From contig CANRIT010000005.1 in assembly GCA_947630745.1 (NCBI GenBank), positions 2,403-66,402 on the forward strand: a stretch of DNA of 64,000 nucleotides, given 5' to 3'. This DNA is from an uncultured Clostridia bacterium. Lineage in GTDB: Bacteria; Bacillota; Clostridia; Christensenellales; UBA1242. Shown here piece by piece: positions 639 to 27,362 of the stretch (within the stretch, counting starts at the first letter, position 1; each line of letters starts with the position of its first letter). The position numbers were made by a program, and so were the translations under genes. The notes under the pieces are model-generated. The model was not told where the DNA came from, ran no database searches, and saw nothing but the letters and a program-made list of their open reading frames with translations.

Positions 639-1823
639 TTATTTTTTAAGTTTTCTTAAAAATGGTGGCAAATCATCGTCATCTAAAAATGGTTTTTTGT
701 TGCCAATTGAAATGTCTTCAACCGTGTCAACATGCTCTTCTTCCGGCTTTTCTTGCTCTAAATCAGCAGCGGCTGGCTGTTCGGCTGGTTTTTCACTTAC
801 TGGCGCGGTAAAAGGTTTAAAGTCTGCGCTGTTGTCTCTGAAATTTGGCACAACCTGATTTGGTTGCTGTTGTTGCATACCCTTTTGTTCAAACCCAGTG
901 GCGATAACGGTAATTTCCGTTTCCCCGCTTGTGTCATTTTTAAAGCATGCGCCAAAGATGATGTTACAATCTTTATCCGCAACATCGCGCACCAAATCAA
1001 CCGCCTCATAAACTTCTGCCAAAGTTAAGTCTTTACCGCCGGTTACATTGATAAGTATACCGGTTGCGCCTTCAATGCTGGTTTCCAACAGCTGGCTGGT
1101 AACCGCTTGGCGAACTGCATCAATGGTTTTGTTTGCACCACGACCCTTACCAATACCCATGTGAGCAATGCCCTTATCCTTCATAATTGTGGAAACATCG
1201 GCAAAGTCTAGGTTAATTGTTCCGCTGACCGAAATCAAATCGCTTACGCCTTGAATTGCTTGGCGCAAAACATCATCCGCGTATCTAAACGCGTCAATAA
1301 AAGGCACATCCTTTTTAAGGATTGAATACAACTTTTCGTTAGGCACAACCACAAGGCTGTCAACATACTTGCGCATTTCGCGTATGCCCATCTCAGCGTT
1401 TGCTGCGCGGCGTGGACCTTCAAATTTAAAAGGTTTTGTAACCACGCCAATGGTTAAAATGCCCATTTCACGCGCGATTTGTGCAATAACTGGCGCTGCA
1501 CCATTACCCGTGCCGCCGCCAAGCCCAGCCGTGATAAACAGCAAATTTGTGCCTTGAAGCGCTTTAACAATTTCGTCCCTGCTCTCTTCCGCAGCCGCGC
1601 GCCCAATTTCTGGGTTTGCGCCCGCGCCCAAGCCTTTGGTTAACTCCTTACCAATTTGGATGATTTCATCCGCGTTGGACATGTTTAAGTCTTGCTTATC
1701 TGTGTTAACCGCAATAAACTTGCAACCTTGAATGCCGGCTGCAACCATTCTGTTGATGGCGTTGTTTCCGCCGCCGCCAACACCAATAACCTTAATGTCG
1801 CAAATAGTGTTTCTATAATCCAT
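639..1823 (-). CDS. ftsZ: Cell division GTPase FtsZ
   Basis: 394 aa. Carries the tubulin signature GLGGGTGNGAAP, an N-terminal IKVIGVGGGGNNAINRM and the C-terminal peptide DDLPPFLRK. AAGGAGGG RBS upstream; last gene of the dcw cluster. Confidence 0.97.
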   Translation of the reverse strand: MDYRNTICDIKVIGVGGGGNNAINRMVAAGIQGCKFIAVNTDKQDLNMSNADEIIQIGKELTKGLGAGANPEIGRAAAEESRDEIVKALQGTNLLFITAGLGGGTGNGAAPVIAQIAREMGILTIGVVTKPFKFEGPRRAANAEMGIREMRKYVDSLVVVPNEKLYSILKKDVPFIDAFRYADDVLRQAIQGVSDLISVSGTINLDFADVSTIMKDKGIAHMGIGKGRGANKTIDAVRQAVTSQLLETSIEGATGILINVTGGKDLTLAEVYEAVDLVRDVADKDCNIIFGACFKNDTSGETEITVIATGFEQKGMQQQQPNQVVPNFRDNSADFKPFTAPVSEKPAEQPAAADLEQEKPEEEHVDTVEDISIGNKKPFLDDDDLPPFLRKLKK

Positions 1824-1833
1824 AAAACCCTCC

Positions 1834-2943
1834 TTACACTACAATTTTTGCAAGATATGCCAAACCCAATTTTGAAGTTTGAAACTTTTCCTTAGAATTG
1901 TCAAGCGGAATTTTAAACTCGCTTATATCCAGCCCGGCAACCTGCTTAAACACGGATTTTACCCCTTTAAAGTTTGCAAGCCCATCGCCCGTTAAGTAAA
2001 CCGGAATGCCGTTAAACATTTCGTCCACCTTTAAGATGTTGCCTACAATTTTTGCAATGATTTCAATTCTGCTGCGGACAATTTGGTTTGTTATGTTGAT
2101 TGGCGCTTTAATAAGGCTGCCGTGCGAACAAACCTGATAATTTTCGTTTTTATCCGACTCAATTGTTAAAATAACCTTGCGTTTTATAAGCTCCGCCTCA
2201 GCAAAACTCATGCCCAAAACTTGATAGATGTCGGACGAAATATGCCCGCCGCCCATAGAAAACGAACTAAGCAGCGCCAAACCCTCGCCTTTGTACACAC
2301 ACACGCTGGTTGAAATATGCCCCACGTCAACAATTGCAATTGGTTTGTTGGTTTGAATTTGCTTGCTAAGCGCAACGGCTTGACCAAGCGAAGTGGATAA
2401 AAAGTCAACTTGTTTAACCCCGTTGCTGTTTAAAATCTGCACAAAAAGGTTTAAAAACGACTTTTTTGCCAAAATAAAACTTGCATCCATGGTTAGGCAA
2501 CTGGTTTTTTTGCCTTGTGGGGAAAGGGTTTTTACCCCATCATCCAACTGAAATTGCATTGCGCTGTAATTTATAACCGAATAGCCTTCGCTGTCGCCAA
2601 AGCCTTTGTTGGAAATAAATAGGTCGGTTATGTCGCTGTTGCTAACTTTGTGAAGTGATACAAATTGGCGGGAAATGCGCTTGCATGCACATTTGCAAAA
2701 TTCAGCCGGCACACCCACTGAAATTGATGTTATGGTTTTGCGAAGTTTTGCGCTCATGTTGTTTATAAGGCGGGAAATTTTGGATTCAATTTCAGTTTCT
2801 AATAAAAATTTGCCATCCATATAACCATCATAAAGTTCGTACTCTTCCGCAAAAACTTTTGGCATGTTTGCATAAGACGCAATTGCCAACAAACATATTT
2901 TGGACGAACCTATATCCAAGATATATTTAAGGTTATTAAGCAC
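1834..2943 (-). CDS. ftsA: Actin-like cell division protein FtsA (short, divergent; GTG start)
   Basis: 369 aa. Actin-fold phosphate motifs DIGSSKI, VDVGHISTSV, GGGHISSDI and LTGDG. Lies directly upstream of ftsZ (10-nt gap). GGGGG RBS 4 nt before the GTG. Confidence 0.8.
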   Translation of the reverse strand: MLNNLKYILDIGSSKICLLAIASYANMPKVFAEEYELYDGYMDGKFLLETEIESKISRLINNMSAKLRKTITSISVGVPAEFCKCACKRISRQFVSLHKVSNSDITDLFISNKGFGDSEGYSVINYSAMQFQLDDGVKTLSPQGKKTSCLTMDASFILAKKSFLNLFVQILNSNGVKQVDFLSTSLGQAVALSKQIQTNKPIAIVDVGHISTSVCVYKGEGLALLSSFSMGGGHISSDIYQVLGMSFAEAELIKRKVILTIESDKNENYQVCSHGSLIKAPINITNQIVRSRIEIIAKIVGNILKVDEMFNGIPVYLTGDGLANFKGVKSVFKQVAGLDISEFKIPLDNSKEKFQTSKLGLAYLAKIVV

Positions 2944-2968
2944 TTTACCCCCAAAATTATTTAACTTA

Positions 2969-2998
2969 ATTATATAATTTTTGTTTTGATAAAGTCAA
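2969..2998 (-). promoter_or_regulatory. Sigma-A type promoter for ftsA-ftsZ
   Basis: Minus strand reads TTGACT (2993-2998), an 18-nt spacer, then TATAAT (2969-2974). A TATATA 2 nt upstream would give a 16-nt spacer. It sits downstream of the terminator at 3246-3275. Confidence 0.55.
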
Positions 2999-3043
2999 CT
3001 AAATTTTATCAGTTTTGCCGTTTTTCTACATTATTTTATAATT

Positions 3044-3242
3044 TATACAATATATAGTGGCACTATTCACCAAAATACCCCATTTGTACTTATAAATAAA
3101 TCCAAAATTTTGCCCAAAACCGATAAAAACTTCAAAATAATTCCGCCTTAAAATTCTATATATAGTCACTTTCCGCCCCACCAACACAATATACCCTTGT
3201 GTTATAGCACTGTAACATATACAATATGTAGTGTCCCTATTC
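3044..3242. repeat. 25-bp direct repeat pair (22/25 identical) in the ftsA upstream region
   Basis: 3044-3068 tatacaatatatagtggcactattc versus 3218-3242 tatacaatatgtagtgtccctattc. A weaker related motif, tatatagtcac, occurs at about 3148-3160. Confidence 0.6.
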
Positions 3243-3245
3243 AAT

Positions 3246-3275
3246 AAAAAAAATCTGCTAATAATAAGCAGATTT
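3246..3275 (-). terminator. Rho-independent terminator of the 884-aa surface protein gene
   Basis: Stem aaatctgct (3251-3259) pairs with agcagattt (3267-3275) around a 7-nt loop. A T-run follows on the minus strand (A-run 3246-3253), 10 nt after the stop. Confidence 0.8.
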
Positions 3276-3284
3276 CTTATTAAA

Positions 3285-5939
3285 TTAGTCGCCCGTACAT
3301 GTATATATATAATATTCATCATTAGACGAACAAGCAAAGGGTTCATTTTCGTCTTCTCGATATAAAAATTTATTAATATTTCTAGATCCAGCTGATTTTT
3401 TAACATAAATTTTGTTCCCAATTACAAGTTCATAATTATCTATAGCTATCGCACGAAATACTTCATTTCCCAATATAGTAATATTCCCCTTAAAGTTAAA
3501 TACTTTACTACCTAAACTTTTTACACTTGCTGGAATTGTTAACATATCAACTCTTTCTTGTCGTTCAATTACAAATGCCCCGCCCTTTATCCTTGTTGTA
3601 CCATCTTGAAGAGTAATTGTACTTTTATAACTTTCCAAACCACAAGCAATCAATTCATCATTATATCTATAATAGATAACCCCATCAATAGTTTCTATTT
3701 GACCTTTATCATTTTCGTCTGATAATACAACTGCAGCGTAACCATAAAGTCCATTATTTGTATCTTGTTTTAAATCTATTTGTGATTTGTTAATTACTTC
3801 AATAAGTTCATTGCAATCTGCAAACGCATTCGAACCTATGCTTTTTAAATTTTGATTTAAAGTCACGCTAGTTATACTGCTATGTTCAAACGCATCCTGA
3901 TTAATCTCTGTAGTTTTATCTGATAAAACGATCTCGGTTTTTTGCGGGTCTGCAAGTCCCGCAGCAATATAGTTGTCACCATCATCATAATAATAAATTC
4001 CGTCTTCTATTGTTAATTTGCTTTGAGTTTCATCGGAAATTACTTGCTTTGCGTACTTAGCAACGCTGCCGTTGTCATTATTTCCTGGCGTCAATTGCAA
4101 TTCAGATTTATTTACTACTTCTATTAATCGACCACAATTGTCAAAAGCATCACTTACAATTTTTTTAACATTTTTTGGTATAGTTACTTTTATAAACCCT
4201 GCAAATCTAAATGCCATATTGCCAATTGATTGTAAGTTGCAATCATCTTCCACATAAATACTTGTTAAATTATAACAATCGTAAAATGAGAAGTGTCCAA
4301 TTGATTCTACATTTTTACCTATCTTTACGCTAGTTATATCGTTATTATAATAGAAAGCATAATCATTAATTTTTGTAACATCGTCTGGGATTACTAAATC
4401 ACCTTTTACTTGTTGTCCATTTATGTATAAATCCACCCCATGAGGCCCAAACGATTGTTCAAGACTTACTTTATTATCCTTCATTATAGAAGATTCACAC
4501 CATTCTTTTAATGTTCCAGTATAATTAATTTTAGCTAAATCATAAAATGTACCAGTATGTTTACAATTTTTACCAAAAGTTAAACTTGTAATTTCATAAT
4601 ATGAAAATGCATTGTATTCAATTTCAGTTACTGGTAGACCCATGTACGTGTCTGGGATAATTAATTCTGTGGAATCCATGCCTTCCTTAAAGCCGGTTAC
4701 AATATAGCCATCATTTGTGTCATTCATTTTAAAGGTAAGATTTGTTTGGATTATTTCTTCAAAATCAATGGTCAAGTTGCCTTCTACTGTAAGATTAATT
4801 TCTTCACTTGGTTCAGTTTCTGAATAATCTTCGCCATTTATTTTAAAGGTTACTAGGTCGGCGTTATCGCTTAGGGTATAGGAGATTTTTAGTTCATCGC
4901 CATAATGAATTTCTGTTTGGGCGGTTATATCAGTGTAAGTTTCACCTTGTTTTAATTCTACTTTTACATGCGATTGGTCTTCAGCATCAATTGTTAATGT
5001 ATATTCGCGTGGGGATGATGTGAAGTCTGCACGGACATAGAGATTTGCAGTAATTGGAGTTGAGAAATCAAAATATTGTTTTTCTTCACCTATTTGTTGA
5101 TTATCTTGGTCAACTATAAGCCAGCCGGCAAAGGAAAATTGTTCTGCAACTGTAGATTCTTTTTGTGGGTTTTCTACTGTTATGCTATTATTGTATTGTA
5201 CAGATTGAGATGTTTGTTCCACTCCGTCAAAGTCAAAGAAGTGTACGATAAAGGTTTGGATTTGTTCTTCATAGTGAAGAGTAATGTCTTTATCTTCCGC
5301 TGTTTTGTTATCTGCCACAATTTTGTAGATTGGCAAACCAGCTTCTGTATATTCTTCAGTAAACTCAGCACCAGTTATTGAGAATGTGCTGTCATAACCA
5401 GTTTTTGTGGTTAATTTAACTGCAAATTTGTCGCCATGATGAAGTGGTTGAGTAGTGTCTAGTTTTTCACCAGATAGGTTTTGAATTTCGATATTGTCAA
5501 AATCTGTCGCATTTGTAAATACATAATTAATAATTATATATTTTAAGTATACAGTTGTGCCTTTTGTTATCTTAGTGTCAAGCGAAAGCAAATCTTCTAA
5601 GCCTTCGTCAGCATAGAAACCAGCAAAATAATAGCCATCCCTGTTTGGTGCTTGGATATCACCTATGGTTGAACCTTTTTTTAGTTTGAGTGTTTGGTTA
5701 GATGATAAATCTTCACCAACAGCATGGATTTCAACTTGGAAATCTTGATGATTGGTGTAATAAATTACTGCTGGAATGGTAAGCGTAGTGGCTGCGAGTA
5801 ATGCTGATGCAACTACTATTGCTACCTTTTTGCCAGTGTTCTTTTCTTTCTGCTCCTTTACTGGCTTGTTAAGCATTTGTTGTTCATTTGTTGTAAGATT
5901 TTTCTTTTGTCCGCCTATTGCGGTATTTTTGGTTGGCAT
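3285..5939 (-). CDS. Membrane-anchored surface protein with Listeria-Bacteroides-type repeats and BspA-type leucine-rich repeats
   Basis: 884 aa. Lys-rich N-terminus followed by one TM helix (VAIVVASALLAATTLTIPAVIYY, about nt 5757-5825). GYYFAGFY and FSFAGWL motifs. The C-terminal half (about 3300-4670) consists of I-P-x-x-V-x-x-I-G-x-x-A-F-x-x-C-x-x-L units (LRR_5-like). The N-terminal 130 aa are paralogous to the 3336-aa protein at 50495-60505. AAGGAG RBS. Confidence 0.85.
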   Translation of the reverse strand: MPTKNTAIGGQKKNLTTNEQQMLNKPVKEQKEKNTGKKVAIVVASALLAATTLTIPAVIYYTNHQDFQVEIHAVGEDLSSNQTLKLKKGSTIGDIQAPNRDGYYFAGFYADEGLEDLLSLDTKITKGTTVYLKYIIINYVFTNATDFDNIEIQNLSGEKLDTTQPLHHGDKFAVKLTTKTGYDSTFSITGAEFTEEYTEAGLPIYKIVADNKTAEDKDITLHYEEQIQTFIVHFFDFDGVEQTSQSVQYNNSITVENPQKESTVAEQFSFAGWLIVDQDNQQIGEEKQYFDFSTPITANLYVRADFTSSPREYTLTIDAEDQSHVKVELKQGETYTDITAQTEIHYGDELKISYTLSDNADLVTFKINGEDYSETEPSEEINLTVEGNLTIDFEEIIQTNLTFKMNDTNDGYIVTGFKEGMDSTELIIPDTYMGLPVTEIEYNAFSYYEITSLTFGKNCKHTGTFYDLAKINYTGTLKEWCESSIMKDNKVSLEQSFGPHGVDLYINGQQVKGDLVIPDDVTKINDYAFYYNNDITSVKIGKNVESIGHFSFYDCYNLTSIYVEDDCNLQSIGNMAFRFAGFIKVTIPKNVKKIVSDAFDNCGRLIEVVNKSELQLTPGNNDNGSVAKYAKQVISDETQSKLTIEDGIYYYDDGDNYIAAGLADPQKTEIVLSDKTTEINQDAFEHSSITSVTLNQNLKSIGSNAFADCNELIEVINKSQIDLKQDTNNGLYGYAAVVLSDENDKGQIETIDGVIYYRYNDELIACGLESYKSTITLQDGTTRIKGGAFVIERQERVDMLTIPASVKSLGSKVFNFKGNITILGNEVFRAIAIDNYELVIGNKIYVKKSAGSRNINKFLYREDENEPFACSSNDEYYIYTCTGD

Positions 5940-5979
5940 AATTTCTCCTTTTATTGGACACTAGTCCACCTGCTACACT

Positions 5980-6010
5980 ATTCTACCATGCTTGCCCCCC
6001 CCCCTGTCAA
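5980..6010 (-). promoter_or_regulatory. Promoter of the 884-aa surface protein gene with a G10 tract in the spacer
   Basis: Minus strand reads TTGACA (6005-6010), a 19-nt spacer GGGGGGGGGGCAAGCATGG, then TAGAAT (5980-5985). A 40-nt leader with AAGGAG precedes the ATG at 5939. Confidence 0.6.
5995..6004. repeat. C10/G10 homopolymer tract
   Basis: Ten consecutive C on the plus strand (cttgCCCCCCCCCCtgtcaa). It is the longest G/C homopolymer I saw in the window. Confidence 0.95.
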
Positions 6011-6079
6011 CCCTTTTTAATATATTTTTACATTTTTTTACAAAAATATTTATATATCCCCGCATCCAAACCCTTTCAC

Positions 6080-6104
6080 AAAAAAAAAGGCTTGCTAACA
6101 AGCC
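6080..6104 (-). terminator. Rho-independent terminator after ftsQ
   Basis: Stem ggcttg (6089-6094) pairs with caagcc (6099-6104), loop ctaa. A 9-nt T-run follows on the minus strand (A-run 6080-6088). Confidence 0.8.
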
Positions 6105-6133
6105 AAATTTTGCAAAATTAGACATTTTTGCTA

Positions 6134-7087
6134 TTAATATGTGATTTTTATATTATGCTGGTCATCATATCCGCAATTGAAGGTGGTGATTGTGCCTTCG
6201 GGGTTGGATTCAAAATAATTTGCAATGGTGTTAAAACAAAGGTTGACTTTGTACTGCAAATCTTTTTGAGCAACTTTGATGTTGATTGTAATGTCCTTGC
6301 CGTTCAAGTTAACCGCAAGGCTTAAATTAATTTCATCTTTTACAAGGGTATTTAATTCTTGATGGTCGGTTTTTGGCGACTTTAAGGTGACCGATTTGAC
6401 AATTGAAATAAAGTCTTGCCTGGTGGCGTTTGGGGTTTTGGTTTTGTCGGCAACAACCTTACCATCTTCCACCACCACGGTTGAACAAAAACTGTTATAT
6501 AAATTTGAGGTGATGCTGCGTATTGCTGGCTGGGCAAAATATTCACCCGTATCGGTTGAAGATTGCTGTTGGTCTTTTAGGCTGTCGTCAATAATAAGTT
6601 CCACCAAACCGTTAAGCCTTTCTGGCTTTTGGTCGGTGCACAATTCGCCATCCATAGCCATAAGTTCTTCATCCATAATGCAATAGCGTTGAGCGGTTAC
6701 TGTGTACTTTTCATCTTCCGTTAAAATATAATATGTTTCCTGCCGCGGGCGGACAATGATTTCAACTGAAATTACGCTTTTGGTTTTTATCTGCACCACT
6801 TTTACCATTGGATAGCGCGACTGGATGTTGTTGATTGCCTTTTGCTTGTCCAACATAAAAATTGGTTTGCCGTTTTTAAGCCCTGCCGCCTTGATTATAT
6901 CTTCACCTGACAAATTTTGCTTGGTGGTTTGCCCCGCATCGTTTTTGATTAAACTTACAATCGGCTGGTCGCCAAGCACGGTGACATATTGACGCCTTAA
7001 ACAAAAAACCACACCAAACAAAACTATGATTAGTGTTATAACAGACAAAAGTATTGAACTTAAAATAATTAATGATTTTTTACTCAT
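6134..7087 (-). CDS. ftsQ: Cell division protein FtsQ/DivIB (TM + POTRA)
   Basis: 317 aa. N-terminal TM helix LIILSSILLSVITLIIVLFGVVF, then a POTRA-like segment (NLSGEDIIKAAGLKNGKPIFMLDKQKAINNIQSRYPMVKVVQIKTK). Sits in the dcw position and overlaps the murA stop by 8 nt. Confidence 0.75.
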   Translation of the reverse strand: MSKKSLIILSSILLSVITLIIVLFGVVFCLRRQYVTVLGDQPIVSLIKNDAGQTTKQNLSGEDIIKAAGLKNGKPIFMLDKQKAINNIQSRYPMVKVVQIKTKSVISVEIIVRPRQETYYILTEDEKYTVTAQRYCIMDEELMAMDGELCTDQKPERLNGLVELIIDDSLKDQQQSSTDTGEYFAQPAIRSITSNLYNSFCSTVVVEDGKVVADKTKTPNATRQDFISIVKSVTLKSPKTDHQELNTLVKDEINLSLAVNLNGKDITINIKVAQKDLQYKVNLCFNTIANYFESNPEGTITTFNCGYDDQHNIKITY

Positions 7088-8333
7088 ACGAAATTTGTGC
7101 GCCTAGTGAATTTAGCAGTGCATAAAGCTGCTGATAGCCGCGGTTTACAAGCGAAATGTTGCTTACCCGCGTTTTGCCATCCGCCACCATGCCAGCCAAA
7201 ACAAGTGCCGCCCCGCCGCGCAAATCAGTTGCTTTAAAATTGCCACCATACAACTTTTTTACCCCGTTTATCACCAGTTTGTGATTGCTTATAACCTTGA
7301 TGTTTGCACCCATTTTTTGCAGCGCGGGTACGGTTAAAAAGCGGTTTTCAAACACGCTTTCCGTGACCGTTGTGCGCCCGTTTGCCACGCATGACAGCAC
7401 AAGCATCATCGACTGCAAATCGGTTGGAAAATCTGGGTAAAAACCAGTTGCTATTTTGCCCGGCGCGGACAATTTGCCCTCACTAGTTATTGTAATTATA
7501 TCACAATCGATTTCAATTTTGCAACCTATTAAACGCAAAATTTCTATTAATTTTTTATTTTGTTGCGGTTTTGCGTTTTTTATCTTTACTTTTCCGCCAC
7601 AAATCGCGGTGGCTATCAAAACTGTGCCGGCAACAATGCGGTCGCCAATTGGAGTGTACTCCACCCCATGCAAACTGGTTACACCATAGATTGTTATGGT
7701 TTTTGTGCCAGCACCAACAATTTTTGCGCCCATTAGGTTTAAAAAATTGCACAAATCGACCACTTCTGGCTCGCGGGCGGCGTTTTTTATAACCGTTTTG
7801 CCATTGAGTGTGCAGGCAAATTCGACAATATTTTCGGTTGCGCCCACGCTTGGAAGTTTAAGTTTTATTACACCCGACTTGCAATTTGAGGCGTCAAAAA
7901 TAAGTTGGTCGCCCGCTTGCTCAACTTTTACTCCTAGTTTTTTAAACGACTTTATATGTATGTCAATTGGGCGTTTGCCAATTTTGCAGCCGCCCGGCGA
8001 AGAAATTATTGCCAAGCCAAATCGGTTTAACAGCGCGCCAAGCAAAAAGATTGACGAGCGCATGGTTTTTGATAGTTTGCAGTCTATTTTGGCGTTGGTT
8101 ATGCGGGTGTTGTCAATTTCTAAATCGTCCCCATTTAAGCTACATTTTGCGCCAAGTTTTTGCATTATATTTATCATATTGTCCACATCGGTGATGTGCG
8201 GAAGCTTGTTTATTTTAAATTTTGCGCACGCAATTAGGCTTGCCGACAGAATTGGCAGGCTTGCGTTTTTGCTTGTTTGAATGTTTGCCGTGCCGTATAG
8301 CCTTGTGCCGCCTTTTATTATGTATTTATCCAT
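7080..8333 (-). CDS. murA: UDP-N-acetylglucosamine 1-carboxyvinyltransferase MurA
   Basis: 417 aa. Opens MDKYIIKGGTRLYGTANIQTSKNASLPIL; active-site Cys context SPGGCKIGKRPIDIH; full-length EPSP-synthase-like fold. Confidence 0.95.
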   Translation of the reverse strand: MDKYIIKGGTRLYGTANIQTSKNASLPILSASLIACAKFKINKLPHITDVDNMINIMQKLGAKCSLNGDDLEIDNTRITNAKIDCKLSKTMRSSIFLLGALLNRFGLAIISSPGGCKIGKRPIDIHIKSFKKLGVKVEQAGDQLIFDASNCKSGVIKLKLPSVGATENIVEFACTLNGKTVIKNAAREPEVVDLCNFLNLMGAKIVGAGTKTITIYGVTSLHGVEYTPIGDRIVAGTVLIATAICGGKVKIKNAKPQQNKKLIEILRLIGCKIEIDCDIITITSEGKLSAPGKIATGFYPDFPTDLQSMMLVLSCVANGRTTVTESVFENRFLTVPALQKMGANIKVISNHKLVINGVKKLYGGNFKATDLRGGAALVLAGMVADGKTRVSNISLVNRGYQQLYALLNSLGAQISYE

Positions 8334-10863: not shown

Positions 10864-11856
10864 TTACAAAAGGTAAAAAATAATTGTTATTACGCTTGTT
10901 ATTACGGTTATTGTGCTGTAAAGGTAAACAATTTTTGGCTCGGACAAGTTGCTTAGTTGCAAATGATGGTGAAAGGGCGCCATTTTAAACAGCCGCTTGT
11001 GTTTTAGCTTAAACACCGCAACTTGCAAAATAACCGATATTGCGCTAAACACAAAGCAAAAGCCCAAAATTGGGATTATTAATGGCTGGCCAACAAGGCA
11101 AGCGGAAGATGCGATATATCCGCCCAAGCAAAGCGAGCCAACATCCCCCATAAAAATTGACGCCTTGCTTGTGTTGAAAAATAAAAACCCCATAATTGCG
11201 CCAATAAACAGCATGTTAAGTTGATTGATGTTGTATAGGTTTGTTATGGCTTGTCCGGTTTCGCCCGCAAGGTAGAGTTTGTTTGACACAAGCGCACAGA
11301 TGATTGAAAACGCCACAAGGTAGACAATTGTAACCACGCCCGCAAGCGCATCCAACCCATCGGTTAAATTTACGCTGTTTGTGCAAGCGATAACCACAAA
11401 AATAACAAGCGGGATAACAAAAAATTTTAGGTCGATTGTTTTGTAAGTAAACGGAACAAACACTTTGCCGCCAACTGTTAAAAAGATAAAAATTGCAAAC
11501 ACAAGCGCAATACCAAACTGACCAATAATTTTTTGATATGGGCGCAAACCTAGGTTTTGCTTGTACTTGATTTTTAAAAAATCGTCCATAAAACCAAGCA
11601 CGCCCAAAAAGGCTGCAACTAGATATGCAGTAAACCACTGCCAATTAAACTTGATAAAAATTAGTGCTAGTGGTAGTGTAGATAGTATAAATAATACCCC
11701 ACCCATAGTTGTTGTACCATTTTTGTCTTTGTGGTTTGTTACATAGTTAAGTATTGTTTGATTTACGCTTAGTTTGGTTAGCACCCGCTTGACTGCTGGC
11801 ATTAAGGCAGTTGACAAAACAAAACTTACAACAAATATAATTAACAGATTTATCAT
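10864..11856 (-). CDS. mraY: Phospho-N-acetylmuramoyl-pentapeptide transferase MraY
   Basis: 330 aa membrane protein with motifs GFMDDFLKI, NLTDGLDALAG, FMGDVGSL and APFHHHL. ATGA overlap with the murE stop. Confidence 0.95.
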   Translation of the reverse strand: MINLLIIFVVSFVLSTALMPAVKRVLTKLSVNQTILNYVTNHKDKNGTTTMGGVLFILSTLPLALIFIKFNWQWFTAYLVAAFLGVLGFMDDFLKIKYKQNLGLRPYQKIIGQFGIALVFAIFIFLTVGGKVFVPFTYKTIDLKFFVIPLVIFVVIACTNSVNLTDGLDALAGVVTIVYLVAFSIICALVSNKLYLAGETGQAITNLYNINQLNMLFIGAIMGFLFFNTSKASIFMGDVGSLCLGGYIASSACLVGQPLIIPILGFCFVFSAISVILQVAVFKLKHKRLFKMAPFHHHLQLSNLSEPKIVYLYSTITVITSVITIIFYLL

Positions 11857-13310
11857 AATTTTATTTTGCCTTTTAGTGAATATTTAAAATAGTTGTCCAC
11901 GCAATCGTAGTCGCTAAATGGATACTTTACCCCTTTAACCTCTTGATAACTTTCCGCCCCCTTGCCCAAAATTGCCACCACATCATTTGGTTTGGCAATG
12001 GTCAGCGCGTATTCAATTGCTGAACGCCTATCCGTTATGCGCACCATGTTTTTTGCCTCGTTGTCCTTTGTTATGTCGTCAATAATAAAGTCTGGATTTT
12101 CGTCACGCGGATTGTCGCTGGTCACAATCACATAATCGCTGTTTTTGCACGCAATCTGCCCCATTTCCGCCCGCTTGGTTTTGTCGCGATTCCCGCCGCA
12201 GCCAAACACGGTAATTATGTTTTTTACTGGCAGTTGTTTTAATGCGTTAAGCACGTTTTTTATCCCGTCTGGTGTGTGGGCGTAATCGATAAGCACATTA
12301 AAATCCGCATCAAGTTTAAGCATATTAAATCTGCCCGGAATGAATATTTGGTACGATTTTAATATCGACAAAATATCGATTATATCAATACCCAACTTAA
12401 CCAAGCACGCAATTGCGGTTAAGCAGTTGTAAACATTGTAGTCGCCCATCAAATTGGTGGAGCAAGCGTAGGTTTTTTGCTGGTATTCAAACTTAAACTC
12501 GCTGCCGCGTATGGTGTGAGTTATGTTCATCAGCCTAAAATCTGCGTCATGCCCGATTGTTGAAAGCGGAATTAAAGAATTTTTTACTAGTTCCTTACAA
12601 TTTGCTCCATCCATATTTAGCACGCCCGCTTTGGCATGGCGGGGAGAAAACAGACTATATTTGCATTTTATATAGTTTTCCATAGTGATAAAAAAATCTA
12701 GATGGTCTTTTGTTATGTTGGTTAGCGCCACCATGTCGAACATGATGTAGTCGATTTTGTTAAGTGCGATGGCGTGAGCGGAAATTTCCATTATGCAGTA
12801 TTCGCAGCCGTTATCGTCCATTTCGCGGATGAGTTTGTGCAAGACAATTGGGTCGGGAGTGGTAAGCATGGGCGGCAAAAGCAGATTACCAATGTATATC
12901 CCTTCTGTGCCAATAAGCCCTACTCTATGCCCAAGATTGGTTAAAACTTCGCGCAAAAGATAGCTTGTGGTGGTTTTGCCATTTGTGCCAGTTATGCCAA
13001 TAAATTTCATTTTGGTTTTGTAAGTGGAATAAAAAACTTGGCAAATATAGCTCATTGCCGTGCGGACATTTTCAACACATATCTGGGTAACGGGGATGTC
13101 TAAAAAGCGTTCAACCACCAAACAAACCGCGCCGTTTGACACACTTTCCGCAGCAAAATCGTGCCCATCGTAGCGCATACCCTTAATGGCGAAATAGATT
13201 GCACTGCTAACCTTTTGCTTGCTGTTGGTGGTAAGGCTGTCTATATCCACATCTTTGTAGTATTTTATGCCAATAAATTTCATGTTTGAAATAATGTCAT
13301 ACAATTTCAT
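11853..13310 (-). CDS. murE: UDP-MurNAc-tripeptide synthetase MurE (DNPR motif, probably meso-DAP adding)
   Basis: 485 aa. Motifs GITGTNGKTTTSYLL, GCGGNRDKTKR and TSDNPRDENP. GGGG RBS. Confidence 0.92.
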   Translation of the reverse strand: MKLYDIISNMKFIGIKYYKDVDIDSLTTNSKQKVSSAIYFAIKGMRYDGHDFAAESVSNGAVCLVVERFLDIPVTQICVENVRTAMSYICQVFYSTYKTKMKFIGITGTNGKTTTSYLLREVLTNLGHRVGLIGTEGIYIGNLLLPPMLTTPDPIVLHKLIREMDDNGCEYCIMEISAHAIALNKIDYIMFDMVALTNITKDHLDFFITMENYIKCKYSLFSPRHAKAGVLNMDGANCKELVKNSLIPLSTIGHDADFRLMNITHTIRGSEFKFEYQQKTYACSTNLMGDYNVYNCLTAIACLVKLGIDIIDILSILKSYQIFIPGRFNMLKLDADFNVLIDYAHTPDGIKNVLNALKQLPVKNIITVFGCGGNRDKTKRAEMGQIACKNSDYVIVTSDNPRDENPDFIIDDITKDNEAKNMVRITDRRSAIEYALTIAKPNDVVAILGKGAESYQEVKGVKYPFSDYDCVDNYFKYSLKGKIKL

Positions 13311-13466
13311 AATTTTCCCCTTTTGGGTAATCTATCACACTTATATGCCGTTTTAACCAGCCTGCCAAAAATAGACAAAATGATATTTTTGTTGCATTTT
13401 TTATGCATTTTGTGCAAATTATCCTTATTTTTTGTGTTTTTTTTGACAAGTGGGACCAGAACGCGC

Positions 13467-13560
13467 AACGGGCGGGGCTAAAGCGGGCAAACGTGTTGCC
13501 CGCTAGCTAGGGGCAGCGCCCCTAGCGGCAAACGCAGTTTGCCTTAGCCCCGCCCCCGTT
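13467..13560. repeat. GC-rich four-way-junction palindromic element, copy 1
   Basis: Outer stem gggcggggctaa (13470-13481) pairs with ttagccccgccc (13544-13555). It encloses three hairpins: 13483-13503 (8 bp), 13507-13525 (8 bp) and 13527-13543 (7 bp). Begins 8 nt after the ftsI stop. No U-tract on either strand. Confidence 0.85.
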
Positions 13561-13568
13561 TTGCCTAA

Positions 13569-15473
13569 TCATCCCGTTATAAGTTGAATAACCTCACCAA
13601 GATAAAGCATAGTCCCCGCTGGCGGAAGTTGCGCAATAATAATCTCTCCATCCGTATCGCACACAAATTCTAGCCCAATCGCTTTAAGTTCAGCCGCCGC
13701 TTCTTCAATTGTCTTACCCACCAAATTTGGCATTTCAATCGTTGGTTTAAGGGTAAGTTGACTTTCATCATCTGGCCTTATCGCCTTTGTTTCAAAAATC
13801 GCTTGCAAAATGCGCTGTCCAACCGGTTTTGCAACCACTCCACCATAATATGCTCCCGCGCTTGGCTCGTTTACACAGATTAAGATGATGTATTTTGGGT
13901 TATATGTTGGGTAAGTTCCCACAAAACTGGAAATATATTTTCCGCTGGCAATTTTTCCGTCAGCGCCATATTTTTGCGCCGTTCCCGTTTTTCCGCCGAC
14001 CGAATAGCCAGCCACAAAACTCATTTTGCCATCGCTGTTTACATTGTTAAATAGCAGATTGTTTATAGTTTCAATTGTGTCCGCTTTTAAATTTATATCG
14101 GTTTTTGCGTTTGAGTTTGCGTATAAGGTTTTTCCGTCAAAGGTTATTTTACTTAACAAATGTGGCACAAAATTCTGCCCGCCCGTAATTTTCCCGTACA
14201 CGGTTGCAAGTTGAAGTTGGGTAACCGCCACCGCGTGCCCAAAACCAATACGCGCCAAGTCCACTGTGCGCACCCCTTCTTTTGGCATAATAATTCCCGC
14301 GCTTTCGCTGTAAATATCCACCCCAGTTTTTTCGCCAAGTCCAAAATAGTTAAGGTATTGATAATATTTTTCCACTCCCAGCCTTAACGCCAAATTAACA
14401 AACACGCAGTTGCAGCTGTTTTTAAATGCTTCGCTAAGTGTTTGGCTGCCATGACCAATTGTGCGCCAACATTTTATTGTTTCGCCGTCAACCGTGGTTC
14501 GCCCGCCGCAATAAAACTGGTCGTCAACATCCACAAGCCCTTCGTTTAAAGCTGCGGCAAGGGTTACAAGTTTAAAGGTGCTGCCCGGTTCGTAAACATC
14601 CACAACCGACACATTTTTTGTTTGGTTTTGAAGTTTGGTTAGGTCATCGCGCGGCACGGCATTCAAGTCAAAATTGGGCAAAGTTGCCATCGCCTTAATT
14701 CCGCCAGTTTGCGCATCCAAAATTATCCCACTAACCGACAGTGCGTTGTTTTCGTTGTATGCGGTTAAAAGTTCGCGCTCCATTATCGACTGCATTTGAA
14801 CATCAATTGTGGTATGTAAATCCGCACCCGCCACGCTTGGCAGATAATAGCTTAGCGAATTATCTATCTCTTTGCCTTGCGCGTTGGTTTGAGTAAGGCT
14901 TTTACCGTCAATTCCTTTAAGGTATTTGTCGTAATAAAGTTCAAGCCCCGCCTGCCCGATGTTGTCAATTGTGCAATAGCCCAAAACTTGTGTTAAAAGG
15001 TTGGAATATGGGTAAACGCGCGCCACATTTTGGCTAAGATACACTCCCGCATACTCAGTAAGCGATAGTGCCAATTTTTCGTCCACCTGCATTTTTATAA
15101 GTATCTCGCTAAGGCTTTTGTTGGTTACCTTGCTGTAAACCTTGTTGTAATCCAAGTTTAGTTTGTCCGACAAAACAAGGGCAAGTTCGCTTGCGTTTTT
15201 AACATTTCGCGCGCGCACATAAACATCATAAGTGGTTATTGTGGTTGCCAAGCGCACCCCGTTTGCGTCCAAAATCTCGCCGCGTTTGCTTGAAAGGGGT
15301 AAATCTCTAAGCCACTCTTCTGCCGCCAACGCTTGAAGATGCCGCCCGTCAATTATTTGCAAATAGAATATGCGTGAAATTAGCGCCACAAAAATGGTTA
15401 AAACAATTAAAATTGTTGCAATAAATCGCCTTTCCAACGAATATATATTGTAAAAAGTTTTAAATTTCCGCAT
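13569..15473 (-). CDS. ftsI: Class B penicillin-binding protein (FtsI/PBP2B/SpoVD-like) with C-terminal PASTA domain
   Basis: 634 aa. N-terminal TM helix. Transpeptidase motifs STFK, S-C-N and KTGT. PASTA-like tail PNLVGKTIEEAAAELKAIGLEF. No SD; a TATAAT lies 4 nt before the ATG. Confidence 0.92.
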   Translation of the reverse strand: MRKFKTFYNIYSLERRFIATILIVLTIFVALISRIFYLQIIDGRHLQALAAEEWLRDLPLSSKRGEILDANGVRLATTITTYDVYVRARNVKNASELALVLSDKLNLDYNKVYSKVTNKSLSEILIKMQVDEKLALSLTEYAGVYLSQNVARVYPYSNLLTQVLGYCTIDNIGQAGLELYYDKYLKGIDGKSLTQTNAQGKEIDNSLSYYLPSVAGADLHTTIDVQMQSIMERELLTAYNENNALSVSGIILDAQTGGIKAMATLPNFDLNAVPRDDLTKLQNQTKNVSVVDVYEPGSTFKLVTLAAALNEGLVDVDDQFYCGGRTTVDGETIKCWRTIGHGSQTLSEAFKNSCNCVFVNLALRLGVEKYYQYLNYFGLGEKTGVDIYSESAGIIMPKEGVRTVDLARIGFGHAVAVTQLQLATVYGKITGGQNFVPHLLSKITFDGKTLYANSNAKTDINLKADTIETINNLLFNNVNSDGKMSFVAGYSVGGKTGTAQKYGADGKIASGKYISSFVGTYPTYNPKYIILICVNEPSAGAYYGGVVAKPVGQRILQAIFETKAIRPDDESQLTLKPTIEMPNLVGKTIEEAAAELKAIGLEFVCDTDGEIIIAQLPPAGTMLYLGEVIQLITG

Positions 15474-23271: not shown

Positions 23272-23293
23272 AAAAAAGCACAACTAAGTGCTT
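23272..23293 (-). terminator. Terminator of HA-sigma gene 1
   Basis: aagcac pairs with gtgctt (loop aactaa) and overlaps the stop. T-run on the minus strand. Confidence 0.65.
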
Positions 23294-25403
23294 AAATCAT
23301 CCATTCATCTTTTTGAAGATGTTGTTTTAGTTTTTCTAAAATTTTTTGCAAAACTTTTTCCACTTTTTGTGGTGTGGTGTTAAATTTTTCAGCAAGCTGG
23401 TTTGCTGAGTATGCCGTGCCACTTTTGCTAAAGCCAAAATGCAAACAAATTAACTTATATTCATCGCGCGTTAAAATTTGCTTTGCTCGCTTTAACAATT
23501 GCTCATTGAACGCGCTATCTTCAACCAACTCGTCCGGGCGATATCTGTCGTCCGGAATTGTTTCTTCAACTGTGATGTCATCAAAACCTTGGACTTCTTC
23601 TTGCAAACTTGTAATTTGATTTGCTTTGATTATAAAATGCTTGATTTCATAGTTTATGGTTTTGCCAACATATGCTTTTAATTTAGTTTCTATATTTGTG
23701 GTTGTGTTATCTAATGCGGTGTTTAAAGCATCATAGCCCTGGCCAATCAAATCAGACACATTTGAAGAATTTTTATAACTAAACGCTATTTTATGCACCA
23801 GCGGCATATACTTTTGTAAGTAATCATTTCTTGCGGTTAAGTCGCCATTTAGCATGCGCTTTATCATTGGCTCATTTGGCTTGTCTTTATAATAATCTTG
23901 TGTGTTGAAAACAAAATCTAATTCGTTTAATTTTTCCATTTGCGCATCGGTTAATTGAAGTCTGCGATTGCGAATGTTTCTTACAAAAAAACCTAATTCG
24001 TAATTATCAACAACATAATCATACTCAACAAAGCAACTATTAAATTGCTGCTTATATTCAACCAATTTCTTGTAGAATATTTCAAAATCGAATTTTGCAA
24101 GTTTTGCACTAACCTTTACATTCCAATTAAACCCGATTTTATTTAATTTTGCCCTCTGCTCGTCCGACAAAATTATACCACAATCACGAATAGTTCTTAC
24201 TTTTTGACCCAGTTTGTAGCCGTCAGGGCAAACATATGTTTGTTTAACATTAACATCTTTATATTCTTCTTTATATTCTTCCAAATGTCTATAAAATACA
24301 TCAAATTTAAATGTTCCGCCCTCGCGTTTAGAATCCCAATTAAACTCTATTTTATTTAATACTTCTTTTTGCTCGTTTGTCAATTTTGTGCGGCCCAATC
24401 GAATGTTTTTCATTTTTACTCCAAGTATATATCCGTCTGGACAAACATATCTAATTGGAATACGCGCATCGCTATATGTTTTTCTATATTCAATCAAATG
24501 TTTACGAAATTCATTAAAATCAAAAATTTTTGCATTCCATACAAAATCCATTTCATTTAACATTGATTTTTGTTGCTCGGTCAACCTTATTCCGCCTTCG
24601 CGAATGGTCATAATTTTTTGACCCAGTTTGTATCCATCTGGGCAAACATACGCTTGTCTAACATCAATATTTTTATTAACTTTTTTATATTCTTGCAAAT
24701 AATTATAAAATTCATCAAAGTTGAATCTTACAATTGGTTGTACATCCCAAATAAAGCCTAATTCAACCAATTTTGCTTTTTGCTGGTTGGTTAGTTTTAT
24801 CACGCCTTGACGAATTCTTTTAAATTTGTAACCGAGATTATATCCGTCTTTACAAATATATGATGATGCAGCATATCCATTATTGTTGACTTTTATGTAT
24901 TCAAGCAAACGATTATAAAAATCATCAAAATCAAATTTAATATATGGCCTTCCATCATAAGCAAAGCCCAGTTCTTCCAATTTTGCTTTTTGTTGGTTTG
25001 TTAAACTTATTATGCCAATACGAATATTTTTTATTTTTTGACCAAGATTGTATCCGTCCTGACAAATATAGGATATTGAAATATCAACATCTTTGTTAAC
25101 TTTTTTATATTCAAGCAAACGATTATAAAATTCATCAAAATCAAATTTAATAAATGACCTTGAATCACAAACAAGTCCAACTTCTTGCAATTTTGCTTTT
25201 TGCTGTTCGGTTAGTTTTATGCGGCCCGAACGAATGCGCCTTATTTTACCCCCAAGAGTATATCCATTAGGACAGACATATGATGTTGAAATGTTAACAT
25301 TTTTAAACTCATCTTTGTAGTTTTGTAAATAGGAAAGAAACTCTTCAAAAATGAAGGGCTGGCGTATTATGGCTTTTTGAATGAGATTTTCCTTTTCCGA
25401 CAT
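23292..25403 (-). CDS. Sigma-70-family-like protein with 7 N-terminal helicase-associated (HA) domain repeats
   Basis: 703 aa. The last ~202 aa (about nt 23295-23900) contain a region-2-like segment ARNDYLQKYMPLVHKIAFSY...DLIGQGYDALNTALD and a region-4 HTH LTRDEYKLICLHFGF...YSANQLAEKFNTTPQKVEKVLQKILEKLK. Upstream are seven ~67-aa repeats of the form FDFDEFY..L.EYK....Y.C.DGY.LG.K...IR.G...L...Q...L.ELGF.W. Confidence 0.85.
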   Translation of the reverse strand: MSEKENLIQKAIIRQPFIFEEFLSYLQNYKDEFKNVNISTSYVCPNGYTLGGKIRRIRSGRIKLTEQQKAKLQEVGLVCDSRSFIKFDFDEFYNRLLEYKKVNKDVDISISYICQDGYNLGQKIKNIRIGIISLTNQQKAKLEELGFAYDGRPYIKFDFDDFYNRLLEYIKVNNNGYAASSYICKDGYNLGYKFKRIRQGVIKLTNQQKAKLVELGFIWDVQPIVRFNFDEFYNYLQEYKKVNKNIDVRQAYVCPDGYKLGQKIMTIREGGIRLTEQQKSMLNEMDFVWNAKIFDFNEFRKHLIEYRKTYSDARIPIRYVCPDGYILGVKMKNIRLGRTKLTNEQKEVLNKIEFNWDSKREGGTFKFDVFYRHLEEYKEEYKDVNVKQTYVCPDGYKLGQKVRTIRDCGIILSDEQRAKLNKIGFNWNVKVSAKLAKFDFEIFYKKLVEYKQQFNSCFVEYDYVVDNYELGFFVRNIRNRRLQLTDAQMEKLNELDFVFNTQDYYKDKPNEPMIKRMLNGDLTARNDYLQKYMPLVHKIAFSYKNSSNVSDLIGQGYDALNTALDNTTTNIETKLKAYVGKTINYEIKHFIIKANQITSLQEEVQGFDDITVEETIPDDRYRPDELVEDSAFNEQLLKRAKQILTRDEYKLICLHFGFSKSGTAYSANQLAEKFNTTPQKVEKVLQKILEKLKQHLQKDEWMI

Positions 25404-25465: not shown

Positions 25466-25488
25466 AAAAAAGCACAACTAGGTGCTTT
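25466..25488 (-). terminator. Terminator of HA-sigma gene 2
   Basis: aaagcac pairs with gtgcttt (loop aactag). T-run on the minus strand. Confidence 0.65.
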
Positions 25489-27362
25489 TAAATTAACCAC
25501 TCATCTTTTTGGAGATTTGATTTTAGTTTTTCTAAAATTTTTTGCAAATGTTTTTCAATTTTTTGTGGTGTGGTGTTAAATTTTTTAGCAAGTTGGTCGA
25601 TTGTGTACATTGTGCCGTGTTTATTAAAACCAAAATACAAACACATCAATTTAAACTCGTCATTGCTTAAAATTTGCCTTGCCTTCTTTTGCAATTGCTC
25701 GCTAAATGCCCTATCTTCCACCAGCCAATCTGGACGATAAGTGTTGTCTTCAATTGTATCTTGAAACACCACACCTTCACAGCCAAGCACATCGTCTTGC
25801 ATGCTTTTGATACTTAGAATTTGTTTTATATGATTTAGTATTAGCCCCCTAATTGTGTTTATTATATATCGCTTTTGACCAGTTTCGTCAATATTTTTTA
25901 AATTATCCAACGCAAGGTCCAGCCCGTCATAGCCAACGCCAAGCAAATCCGAATAATTTGTAAGTTGCCAATAATTTGCTGCCACCATGTTGACCATTGG
26001 CAAATATCTATTAAGGTAATCATTTCTGGCAGTAATATCGCCGTTTAGCATGCGCTTTATCATAGGCTCATCTGGCTTGTCTTTATATAAATCCTGCGTG
26101 TTAAACACAAAGCCCAAACCAACAAGCTGTTCAATTTGATTTTCAGTTAATCTTATCCTTCTGTTGCGAATGTTTCTTACATAAAAGCCCAATTCGTAGT
26201 TGCTTAAAACATAGTCAAATTCGACAAAACAATTGCCATTTTGCGCTTTATATTCAACCAATTGGTTATAAAAATGTTTAAAATTGAAATTTTTAATCTT
26301 GGTCGCGCTTGACACATTCCAAACAAAATCAAGCTCATCCAATTTTGCCTTTTGCTGGTCGTTTATTTTAATATGTCTGGTGCGAATGCCAGCCATTTTT
26401 TCGCCAAGTTTATATCCGTTTTCACACACATAGCGGTTAGGAACGATATTAGTTTTTCTTTTTTGCAAATATTCAAGCAAATTTTGATAGAATTCATCAA
26501 AATTGAACGACCTTGCATCCCAAATAAAGCCCATCTCACCCAATTTGGCTTTTTGTTGGTCGGTTAACCTTATTACGCCAGCGCGAATGTTTGTGATTTT
26601 TTGACCTAGTTTATAATTATCTTTACATACATAACTTTGCCCAACATTAACATCGTTGTGTGTTTCTTTATATTTGACTAGATGCTGATAGAATGTGTCA
26701 AAATCAAAAACCCTTTTTGCGTTCCAAACAAAATTTAATTCATTCAACTTTGCTTTTTGTTGTTCGGTCAACTTTATCCCGCCCGAGCGTATTCTGCACA
26801 CTTTTTGACCAAGTTTGTAGCCGTCATCGCATATATACAACTGTTTAACATTAACATCACCGCATTTTTGTTGGTATTTAAGCAAATACTGATAGAATTT
26901 ATCAAAATCAAATGGCAAAACTCTCCAAACAAAACTAATTTCGTCTAATCTTGCCCTCTGCTGCGAGGATAACTTTAAGTTGCCCGCACGAACATTGCAT
27001 ATTGTGTCCCCCAGCCGGTAGCCGTCCGAACAGCGATATGACCTTTTAATATTAAGGTCGCCATGTCTAAGTTTGTAGTTAAGCAAACGGTTGTAAAATT
27101 TTTCAAAATCAAAAACTCTTTTTGCATTCCAAACAAAACCAATTTCGTTTAGTTTTGCAATTTGCTGGTTGTTTAGATTTATCTCGCCCGAACGAATATT
27201 GTTAATCTTTTGCCCTAGCTTATACCCGTCTTTGCAGATGTAGTCAGTTGGAATGTTGGCGCTTTTATTCACGGCTTTATACTTATTGAAATGTGAAACA
27301 AACTCTTCAAATTTGAAGCGCAGATGAGTTTTTGCCTTTTTAACTAGGTTTTCCCTTTCCAT
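25488..27362 (-). CDS. Sigma-70-family-like protein with 6 N-terminal HA domain repeats
   Basis: 624 aa. Same build as 23292-25403. C-terminal ARNDYLNRYLPMVNMVAANY...DLLGVGYDGLDLALD and LSNDEFKLMCLYFGF...YTIDQLAKKFNTTPQKIEKHLQKILEKLK. Confidence 0.85.
   Translation of the reverse strand: MERENLVKKAKTHLRFKFEEFVSHFNKYKAVNKSANIPTDYICKDGYKLGQKINNIRSGEINLNNQQIAKLNEIGFVWNAKRVFDFEKFYNRLLNYKLRHGDLNIKRSYRCSDGYRLGDTICNVRAGNLKLSSQQRARLDEISFVWRVLPFDFDKFYQYLLKYQQKCGDVNVKQLYICDDGYKLGQKVCRIRSGGIKLTEQQKAKLNELNFVWNAKRVFDFDTFYQHLVKYKETHNDVNVGQSYVCKDNYKLGQKITNIRAGVIRLTDQQKAKLGEMGFIWDARSFNFDEFYQNLLEYLQKRKTNIVPNRYVCENGYKLGEKMAGIRTRHIKINDQQKAKLDELDFVWNVSSATKIKNFNFKHFYNQLVEYKAQNGNCFVEFDYVLSNYELGFYVRNIRNRRIRLTENQIEQLVGLGFVFNTQDLYKDKPDEPMIKRMLNGDITARNDYLNRYLPMVNMVAANYWQLTNYSDLLGVGYDGLDLALDNLKNIDETGQKRYIINTIRGLILNHIKQILSIKSMQDDVLGCEGVVFQDTIEDNTYRPDWLVEDRAFSEQLQKKARQILSNDEFKLMCLYFGFNKHGTMYTIDQLAKKFNTTPQKIEKHLQKILEKLKSNLQKDEWLI

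Follow-up and report, generated by a model that had tools for sequence, protein, structure and literature searches.

The run of ten consecutive G residues that separates the two hexamers of a promoter in an uncultured gut bacterium, upstream of a gene for an 884-aa LRR surface protein, raises the question of whether this tract works as a slippage-driven switch of gene expression or is an incidental filler of the spacer. We approached it in the window, i.e., the whole 64-kb stretch of DNA that was analysed, and the features on which the argument rests are collected in Table 1. Read on the minus strand, the promoter runs aaaaaggg-TTGACA-GGGGGGGGGG-CAAGCATGG-TAGAAT, and 34 nt, AAGGAG and 7 nt then lead to the ATG at 5939, which is the first start codon past the upstream stop; the promoter stands 41 nt upstream of the AAGGAG-ATG start, with an inferred 5' UTR of about 34 nt. 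When region 5900-6140 was scanned in a relaxed manner (spacers of 15-21 nt), the TTGACA/TAGAAT pair came out as the sole strong candidate, with 11 of 12 hexamer matches versus 8 of 12 for the runner-up, and the 194-nt intergenic region upstream of the gene is free of competing promoters. The sequence-only reading had indeed proposed this pair as the only good promoter, with a spacer of exactly 19 nt that includes 10 G's, and both statements agree with our scan and with the coordinates as we read them. A standard scan for spacers of 16-18 nt passes over this promoter because its spacer measures 19 nt. The first description left out the TG dinucleotide that turns the -10 hexamer into an extended -10 (TGnTAGAAT). 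Since the non-G part of the spacer amounts to 9 nt, tracts of G8, G9 and G10 give spacers of 17, 18 and 19 nt, and the earlier claim that the loss of one or two G's leads to 17-18 nt is borne out. A change of 1-2 G moves this spacer into or out of the 17±1 nt optimum, as at other loci with a spacer homopolymer, and the homopolymer lies between the -35 and -10 of the only strong promoter of the intergenic region, as in porA, opc and vlp. The tract itself is intergenic: no ORF of at least 60 aa covers it on either strand. Between the -10 and the RBS, the inferred 5' UTR contains a small palindrome, GGACTAGTGTCC (minus strand, 5957-5968), which could serve as an operator or fold into a small hairpin.

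Table 1. Position of the promoter elements, genes and other features in the window
Feature	Coordinates	Strand	Remarks
ftsZ	639-1823		
ftsA	1834-2943		
Segment with no counterpart in sister MAG L003	3063..6212	-	~2.85-kb cassette: terminator, poly-G promoter, LRR gene, second terminator
Terminator-like hairpin AAGAAATCTGCTTAT / ATTAGCAGATTTTTT plus T-run	3248..3278	-	directly past the LRR stop codon
BspA-type LRR/Flg_new gene, 884 aa	3285..5939	-	paralogue of the 3,336-aa protein
RBS AAGGAG and ATG (5939-5937) of the LRR gene	5937..5950	-	
-10 hexamer TAGAAT	5980..5985	-	5/6 consensus matches
Non-G spacer part CAAGCATGG, 9 nt	5986..5994	-	final TGG gives the extended -10 TG at 5988-5987
G10 homopolymer (C10 on plus strand)	5995..6004	-	directly adjoins the -35 hexamer; candidate slippage tract
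-35 hexamer TTGACA	6005..6010	-	perfect consensus match; A/T-rich stretch 5' of it
Intrinsic terminator of the ftsQ/divIB-like gene	6080..6104	-	GGCTTG-TTAG-CAAGCC at 6104-6089, then T9 at 6088-6080
ftsQ/divIB-like gene	6134-7087		
murA-like gene	7080-8333		
GC-rich multi-hairpin, cloverleaf-like element	13462-13572	-	between PBP/FtsI-like (13569-15473) and murE-like (11853-13310) genes
HA-domain (PF03457) paralogues	23292-25403, 25488-27362, 42848-44347, 44422-46089	-	four proteins of 499-703 aa
BspA-type gene, 3,336 aa	50495-60505	-	7 LRR_5 stretches plus Flg_new

How unusual such a tract is can be judged from the composition of the window. The ten G's, a count that may be wrong by one G in the assembly, stand alone: no other G/C run in the 64 kb reaches 7 nt, and just one, a C6 at 60837-60842, reaches 6. 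The composition of the window predicts 0.0069 runs of 10 nt or longer, a run of 10 was attained in 2 of 400 shuffles, and runs of 6 or more are depleted in the window (2 observed vs 5.0 expected); around the tract itself, the local GC content is 33-35%. That the tract is the longest G/C run of the window and hardly a product of chance, as had been suggested at first, therefore stands.

The product of the gene has the layout of a surface protein: an N-terminal cytoplasmic tail, one hydrophobic anchor (approximately residues 38-62, KKVAIVVASALLAATTLTIPAVIYY), Flg_new and then LRR_5 repeats. LRR_5 (PF13306) is matched in two stretches with 119.6 bits, well above the cut-off of 27.7 (E=1e-34), while Flg_new (Listeria-Bacteroides repeat) reaches 26.4 bits, slightly under its curated cut-off of 27. 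An LRR_5 match above the Pfam gathering score together with the anchor places the 884-aa protein among BspA-type LRR proteins; we predict from these domains a membrane-anchored, adhesin-like surface protein of this type, in agreement with the surface LRR protein of the first reading, and control of a surface-exposed determinant is again a feature of porA, opc and vlp. Its giant paralogue of 3,336 aa is 28% identical to it over the N-terminal 465 aa, anchor included, and the 52-60 kb chunks within the giant gene's region are the outlier of the window in tetranucleotide composition. The promoter of the giant gene is ordinary and its promoter region is devoid of any homopolymer; a promoter ancestry common to both genes was considered and rejected, as their upstream regions yield no meaningful alignment. 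Searches for a second copy of the gene or of its promoter gave a consistent picture. Exact look-ups retrieved no identical entry for the LRR protein, for FtsZ or for FtsQ, pattern scans of species genomes and JGI metagenomes for the promoter with any tract length returned no second copy, and protein-seeded locus searches retrieved only relatives at 32-38% identity or none. Among 5.8 billion clustered proteins the LRR protein is a singleton, its only close match being itself, and its homologues there share at most 40% identity (about 30% among the best-scoring).

The position of the gene within the dcw cell-division cluster bears on whether the poly-G promoter is the one that matters. Upstream, the intrinsic terminator of the ftsQ/divIB-like gene, whose T9 is the A9 run seen on the plus strand at 6080-6088, is predicted to shield the LRR gene from read-through of the dcw cluster. 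Downstream stands the terminator-like hairpin, which was found as an inverted repeat and is without a match in a strict terminator scan, and ftsA has a promoter of its own (TTGACT-18-TATAAT). With terminators on both sides and a separate ftsA promoter, the LRR gene forms an autonomous transcription unit, and, being so bracketed, it should be controlled by the poly-G promoter. The nearest available genome, the rabbit-gut MAG L003 (Lapin-017__bin20), has an FtsA that is 88% identical and DNA that is 74-80% identical on either side, and its ftsQ-ftsA gap is only about 300 bp (L003 7336-7636) as against the segment given in Table 1. The GC content of the extra segment is 33% vs 41-48% in the flanking genes. 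Given its absence from L003 and its low GC, we read the LRR gene with its poly-G promoter as an accessory cassette, probably acquired horizontally. Neither target-site duplication nor terminal repeats, i.e., scars of a mobile element, were found at the cassette ends. It is worth pointing out that, for an accessory surface-protein gene, the ftsQ-ftsA interval of the conserved dcw cluster is an unusual place to be inserted. A 37-nt direct repeat (3039-3075 and 3213-3249, 81% identical) with the core ATACAATAT[A/G]TAGTG lies in the ftsA leader, and a similar motif of the ATATATTGTATA type occurs twice in the ftsQ-ftsA spacer of L003; this repeat motif may thus be a conserved regulator site.

Two other kinds of switch were considered and rejected for this gene. 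Invertible promoters, such as those of cwpV in C. difficile or of Bacteroides capsule loci, have good inverted repeats on both sides and usually a site-specific recombinase close by. An invertible promoter does not fit here, as the inverted repeats around 5600-6500 are weak and scattered (the best one has 22 nt at 77% complementarity); no recombinase domain was detected by Pfam in the six flanking ORFs scanned (639-8333). An intragenic SSR frameshift switch does not fit either, the tract being 56 nt upstream of the ATG and covered by no ORF. Elsewhere in the window, the cloverleaf-like element consists of an outer stem and inner hairpins and is conserved in L003 (12-122), where 7 base pairs are changed on both sides with the pairing kept; it has no Rfam match, even at E<=1. 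A C9 run in L003 was rejected as a free homopolymer tract: it is one arm of this conserved GC-rich outer stem. The four paralogous proteins listed in Table 1 are built of repeated "helicase-associated" HA domains, and the search for further domains in them gave none at cut-off and a single weak LTXXQ match.

We hold, with somewhat better than even confidence, that the G10 is a slippage-variable spacer tract that tunes a sigma-A-type promoter of the accessory LRR gene, and thus a candidate switch. Slipped-strand mispairing during replication would add G's to the spacer or remove them; a tract of G8 or G9 would bring the spacer to the canonical 17-18 nt, and one of G10, the assembled state, or of G11 would stretch it to 19-20 nt and reduce activity. 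With the LRR gene driven by this promoter alone, its transcription would then differ heritably and reversibly among cells of one clone. The assembled genome would represent a low-expression state, with higher-expression variants one or two slippage steps away. For the LRR gene we infer that its transcription starts from this promoter, that the tract undergoes slippage in its host and that expression follows tract length. The extended -10 makes it more likely that the 19-nt state is reduced than silent, and suggests a modulation of the level rather than a strict ON/OFF; a graded effect is, at this promoter, as likely as a switch.

If such a tract has a function, one may wonder how often the same design occurs. 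We surveyed one genome per species (185,579 species) for the pattern TTGACA-N0-9-G9 or longer-N0-9-TGNTANAAT, in which the -10 is TGnTAnAAT and spacers of 12-30 nt are permitted. At least 120 loci (at least 127 sites) were recovered, compared with about 2-7 expected by chance from an estimate based on base composition. Among the matches listed, 121 of 127 sites (95%) have a spacer of 14-21 nt, whereas 55% are expected from the pattern to have 21 nt or less (p=2e-24); chance matches are therefore a handful at most. The matches listed, which are not an unbiased sample of taxonomic spread, come mostly from uncultured gut MAGs (Bacilli, Clostridia, Tenericutes/Mollicutes, Lachnospiraceae, Oscillospiraceae, Christensenellaceae) and include a few known users of poly-G, Campylobacter and Helicobacter. 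An N-terminal hydrophobic or signal segment is encoded by 58 of 83 genes downstream of these promoters vs 119 of 439 other ORFs of the same loci, again among the matches listed (odds ratio 6.2, p=3e-13). The Pfam families found in the downstream products of these matches include pilin-type N_methyl, LRR_8/LRR_4, Flg_new, YadA-like adhesin and Big_3. The combination of TTGACA, poly-G and extended -10 is thus enriched more than 10-fold over chance and tied to surface-protein genes. In 2.3 Mb of the retrieved loci, no promoter with a spacer tract of C8 or longer was found. Within gene families, poly-G promoters are sporadic. A further LRR_5 protein, in a rabbit-gut Clostridia MAG (L076), has a promoter with G10 and a 19-nt spacer, and the poly-G tract is missing from its homologues at 72%, 69% and 55% identity, which led us to reject conservation of the promoter across this gene family. 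Together with the tract-less promoter of the 3,336-aa paralogue, this means that the tract is not a family trait of BspA genes.

Length variation could be observed directly at one promoter of this design. In Butyrivibrio crossotus (L105) and orthologous loci from independent samples (L204-L212), TTGACA is followed by a short linker, a tract of G10-13 and TGnTATAAT, upstream of a 182-aa secreted protein with a signal peptide. The flanks of the tract, TTGACACGC and TGATATAAT, are invariant in this lineage, even at 82-86% protein identity, and the tract itself is G10 in three contigs (16-nt spacer), G11 in two (17 nt) and G12 in one (18 nt); in one more contig (L204), a 30-nt deletion adjoining G13 has taken away the -10, so that no spacer can be given. 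Two contigs (L207 and L208) start within the G run, of which one retains at least 11 G and the other at least 13. A homologue at 73% identity retains G10, and those at 57-61% have a different upstream region without the tract. Such a pattern bears the mark of a hypermutable spacer, here in a Clostridia-class organism of the gut. The broken contigs, together with the deletion-bearing one, also tell us that homopolymer promoters fragment or distort short-read assemblies. In this respect one may ask if the tract in the window is itself an artefact of sequencing or assembly, through the poly-G of two-colour chemistry or a chimeric join: poly-G artefacts are known, and contigs do end at tracts of this kind, as L207 and L208 do. 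We find this hardly credible here, as the tract is just 10 nt long and lies mid-contig, with promoter elements on both sides that are in register with the RBS and ATG; moreover, the ftsQ and ftsA sides are syntenic with L003 and a like architecture recurs in many independent assemblies.

More weight has to be given to the proposal that the tract merely fills the spacer, being fixed or neutral, that it maybe arrived with the cassette, and that the extended -10 ensures steady transcription with no switching at all. Extended -10 promoters tolerate a poor -35 or a poor spacer, so a promoter with TGnTAGAAT could in part do without the -35 hexamer and without a given spacer length; the cassette looks like foreign DNA, and poly-G is absent both from the paralogue's promoter and from the homologues of the L076 gene. 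If the -35 played no role, a perfect TTGACA that is 1-2 G away from a 17-18 nt spacer would nevertheless be difficult to account for. An uninterrupted G10 is unstable by nature, and it occurs here against an expectation of 0.007 in a genome depleted of G/C runs. The >10-fold excess of the design, its link to surface-protein genes and the polymorphism at the analogous B. crossotus-lineage promoter likewise speak against mere filler. For these reasons we judge neutral filling to be unlikely, if far from negligible, and keep the slippage-variable spacer as the preferred reading. That reading agrees with all our findings, and it draws indirect support from the recurrence of the design and from the polymorphism of the analogous promoter.

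The distribution of spacer lengths bears on a different alternative. Among the matches listed, poly-G spacers are modally 19-20 nt, and their non-G part measures 8.4-9.6 nt on average, close to the 9 nt of the window; promoters of these loci that have identical hexamers but lack a homopolymer show spacers of 16-18 nt (mode 17). Near-identical paralogous promoters of one genome may differ by one or two G, as in a Hadza Bacilli MAG (10 vs 11), a chicken MAG (11 vs 13), the E04 MAG (9 vs 10) and the pilin-like genes of a rabbit MAG (10 vs 11), but paralogues are mostly alike in G number, and one MAG has G10 in 7 of 8 paralogous copies. Free drift around an optimum of 17 nt would predict neither such clustering at 19-20 nt nor such a common G number. 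Both agree with a majority of loci in a standby or low state, and they would agree equally with an optimum that is displaced in G-tract spacers. The latter would mean that a poly-G spacer of 19-20 nt is the working form, by virtue of the DNA geometry of the G-tract or of a tract-recognising factor, and that the tract has a regulatory or structural role instead of being a switch thrown by mutation. The displacement of the class peak, 19-20 nt vs 16-17 nt for the homopolymer-free promoters among the matches listed, and the seven identical copies are in its favour. It has to contend with the G9 members, whose spacers average 17.4 nt among the matches listed (19.6 for G10 and 20.0 for G11), with the 16, 17 and 18 nt seen in the B. 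crossotus lineage and with the Neisseria spacer-tract promoters, in which the optimum stays near 17 nt; our comparison of the class revealed neither a factor nor a conserved flanking motif. We therefore consider a 19-20-nt working form rather improbable.

Several groups of loci recovered by the survey deserve a separate description. In Hadza "Bacilli" MAGs, tandem gene arrays (L100, with 4 sites in 8 kb, L086, L064, L082, L041 and L050) have one poly-G promoter per gene, of the form TTGACA-(N1-3)-G10/11-TATxTG-TTATAAT; a hairpin in the 5' UTR, CATCATAGgaaaCTATGgTG, is conserved, the start context is tgatttttttATG or gaagataATG, and the products begin with MxLKKFK...K followed by a transmembrane segment. 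Similar arrayed families with their own poly-G promoters are present at L004, L115, L122, L071, L098, L034 and L057. These arrays resemble a multi-gene system of variable surface proteins. Another group is characterised by a type IV pilin-like leader, MKxKGFTLIELL, downstream of the poly-G promoter (Pfam N_methyl in 6 members), with five loci carrying G10 or G11 in a single rabbit-gut MAG, Lapin-016__bin53 (L010, L016, L028, L056 and L074), and others at L030, L087, L103 and L089. Lastly, among the matches listed, a G10 promoter with an 18-nt spacer at a contig end (L091; CAKOHK010000007.1, 80001-83971) was considered as a second poly-G promoter of the window's genome and rejected, if not with absolute certainty: its tetranucleotide correlation is 0.69 vs 0.96 for the sister MAG, its ribosomal-protein genes have 31.6% GC, the ORFs at the junction are not credible, and the nearest relatives of its Map protein are in Tenericutes/Bacilli MAGs.

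Taken together with the single locus, it is tempting to hypothesize that poly-G plus extended -10 forms a widespread contingency system of uncultured gut Firmicutes, with pilin-like, SipW-signal, LRR, Flg_new and adhesin genes under its control, multi-copy arrays, a "standby" majority at 19-20 nt, and the LRR gene of the window as one of its members; we put this forward as a tentative view, to which we give somewhat less than an even chance. The Firmicutes concerned would be RF39-like or other "Bacilli" as well as Clostridia, the arrays often being multi-copy, and this part of the proposal is held just as tentatively. With the same reserve, the LRR gene might have been acquired as a self-contained switchable cassette within the cell-division gene cluster. 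If the tract does switch, an uncultured gut bacterium would hedge its bets on the display of a BspA-type adhesin-like protein, and host IgA or phages are likely to target proteins of this type. The survey suggests that uncultured Bacilli and Clostridia of the gut commonly use this design, which marks their surface-protein genes; if so, contingency loci in MAGs could be found by means of a simple sequence signature. As a practical warning, at poly-G promoters an assembly gives one arbitrary state, or breaks. In our opinion, this class-level pattern is of greater interest than the single tract of the window.

Homopolymer promoter switches are a textbook matter in Neisseria, Haemophilus and mycoplasmas, with poly-G phase variation in the promoter spacer of porA in N. 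meningitidis and poly-A tracts in the promoter spacers of the variable surface-protein genes vlp in Mycoplasma hyorhinis. In gut commensal Firmicutes, phase variation is known mainly from invertible promoters, and to our knowledge homopolymer promoter switches are barely documented in Clostridia-class commensals. The full-text literature yielded no account of poly-G spacer promoters from gut Clostridia or uncultured Bacilli, but its coverage was incomplete, which makes this weak evidence. Closest to the window in protein class is Ca. Mycoplasma girerdii, whose BspA-like proteins phase-vary via intragenic CA repeats, as deduced from metagenomic read heterogeneity (PMC5476646). The two share the BspA/TpLRR class of surface proteins, while the simple-sequence-repeat phase variation is that of girerdii, where an intragenic CA repeat causes a translational frameshift, unlike the promoter-spacer homopolymer of the window. 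Closest in habitat and tract size is Bifidobacterium breve, in which G10/G11 tracts are measurably heterogeneous and control a sortase-pilus (PMC9187656); promoter-spacer G-tracts are mentioned there in passing, without follow-up. B. breve is likewise a gut commensal with a surface structure associated with tracts of this size, but its characterised tracts are intragenic and it is an Actinobacterium. The B. crossotus-lineage promoter shares with that of the window the Clostridia-class gut host, TTGACA, poly-G and extended -10, upstream of an unrelated gene; length polymorphism with spacers from 16 to 18 or 19 nt was observed there, as opposed to a single observation of 19 nt in the window. The vlp system, as cited in PMC11868660, is a spacer homopolymer in a Firmicute-related lineage and, like the poly-G arrays of the Bacilli MAGs (L100), is multi-locus; it differs from the window locus in its poly-A, its lipoproteins and its wall-less host. 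The nearest counterparts in mechanism are porA and opc of Neisseria, the latter with a poly-C spacer (Sarkari et al. 1994, as cited in PMC5084427). They belong to mucosal pathogens of the Proteobacteria, in contrast to an uncultured gut Firmicute, and the perfect -35, the extended -10 and the BspA-type LRR gene are peculiar to the window locus. In Neisseria it has been demonstrated that tract length sets spacer length and, in a graded manner, the level of transcription, a chain that would extend by inference to the LRR gene. In both cases, a G/C homopolymer of about 9-14 nt lies between the -35 and -10 of a surface-protein gene, which makes the locus of the window a plausible candidate for a promoter-spacer switch of the porA/opc type.
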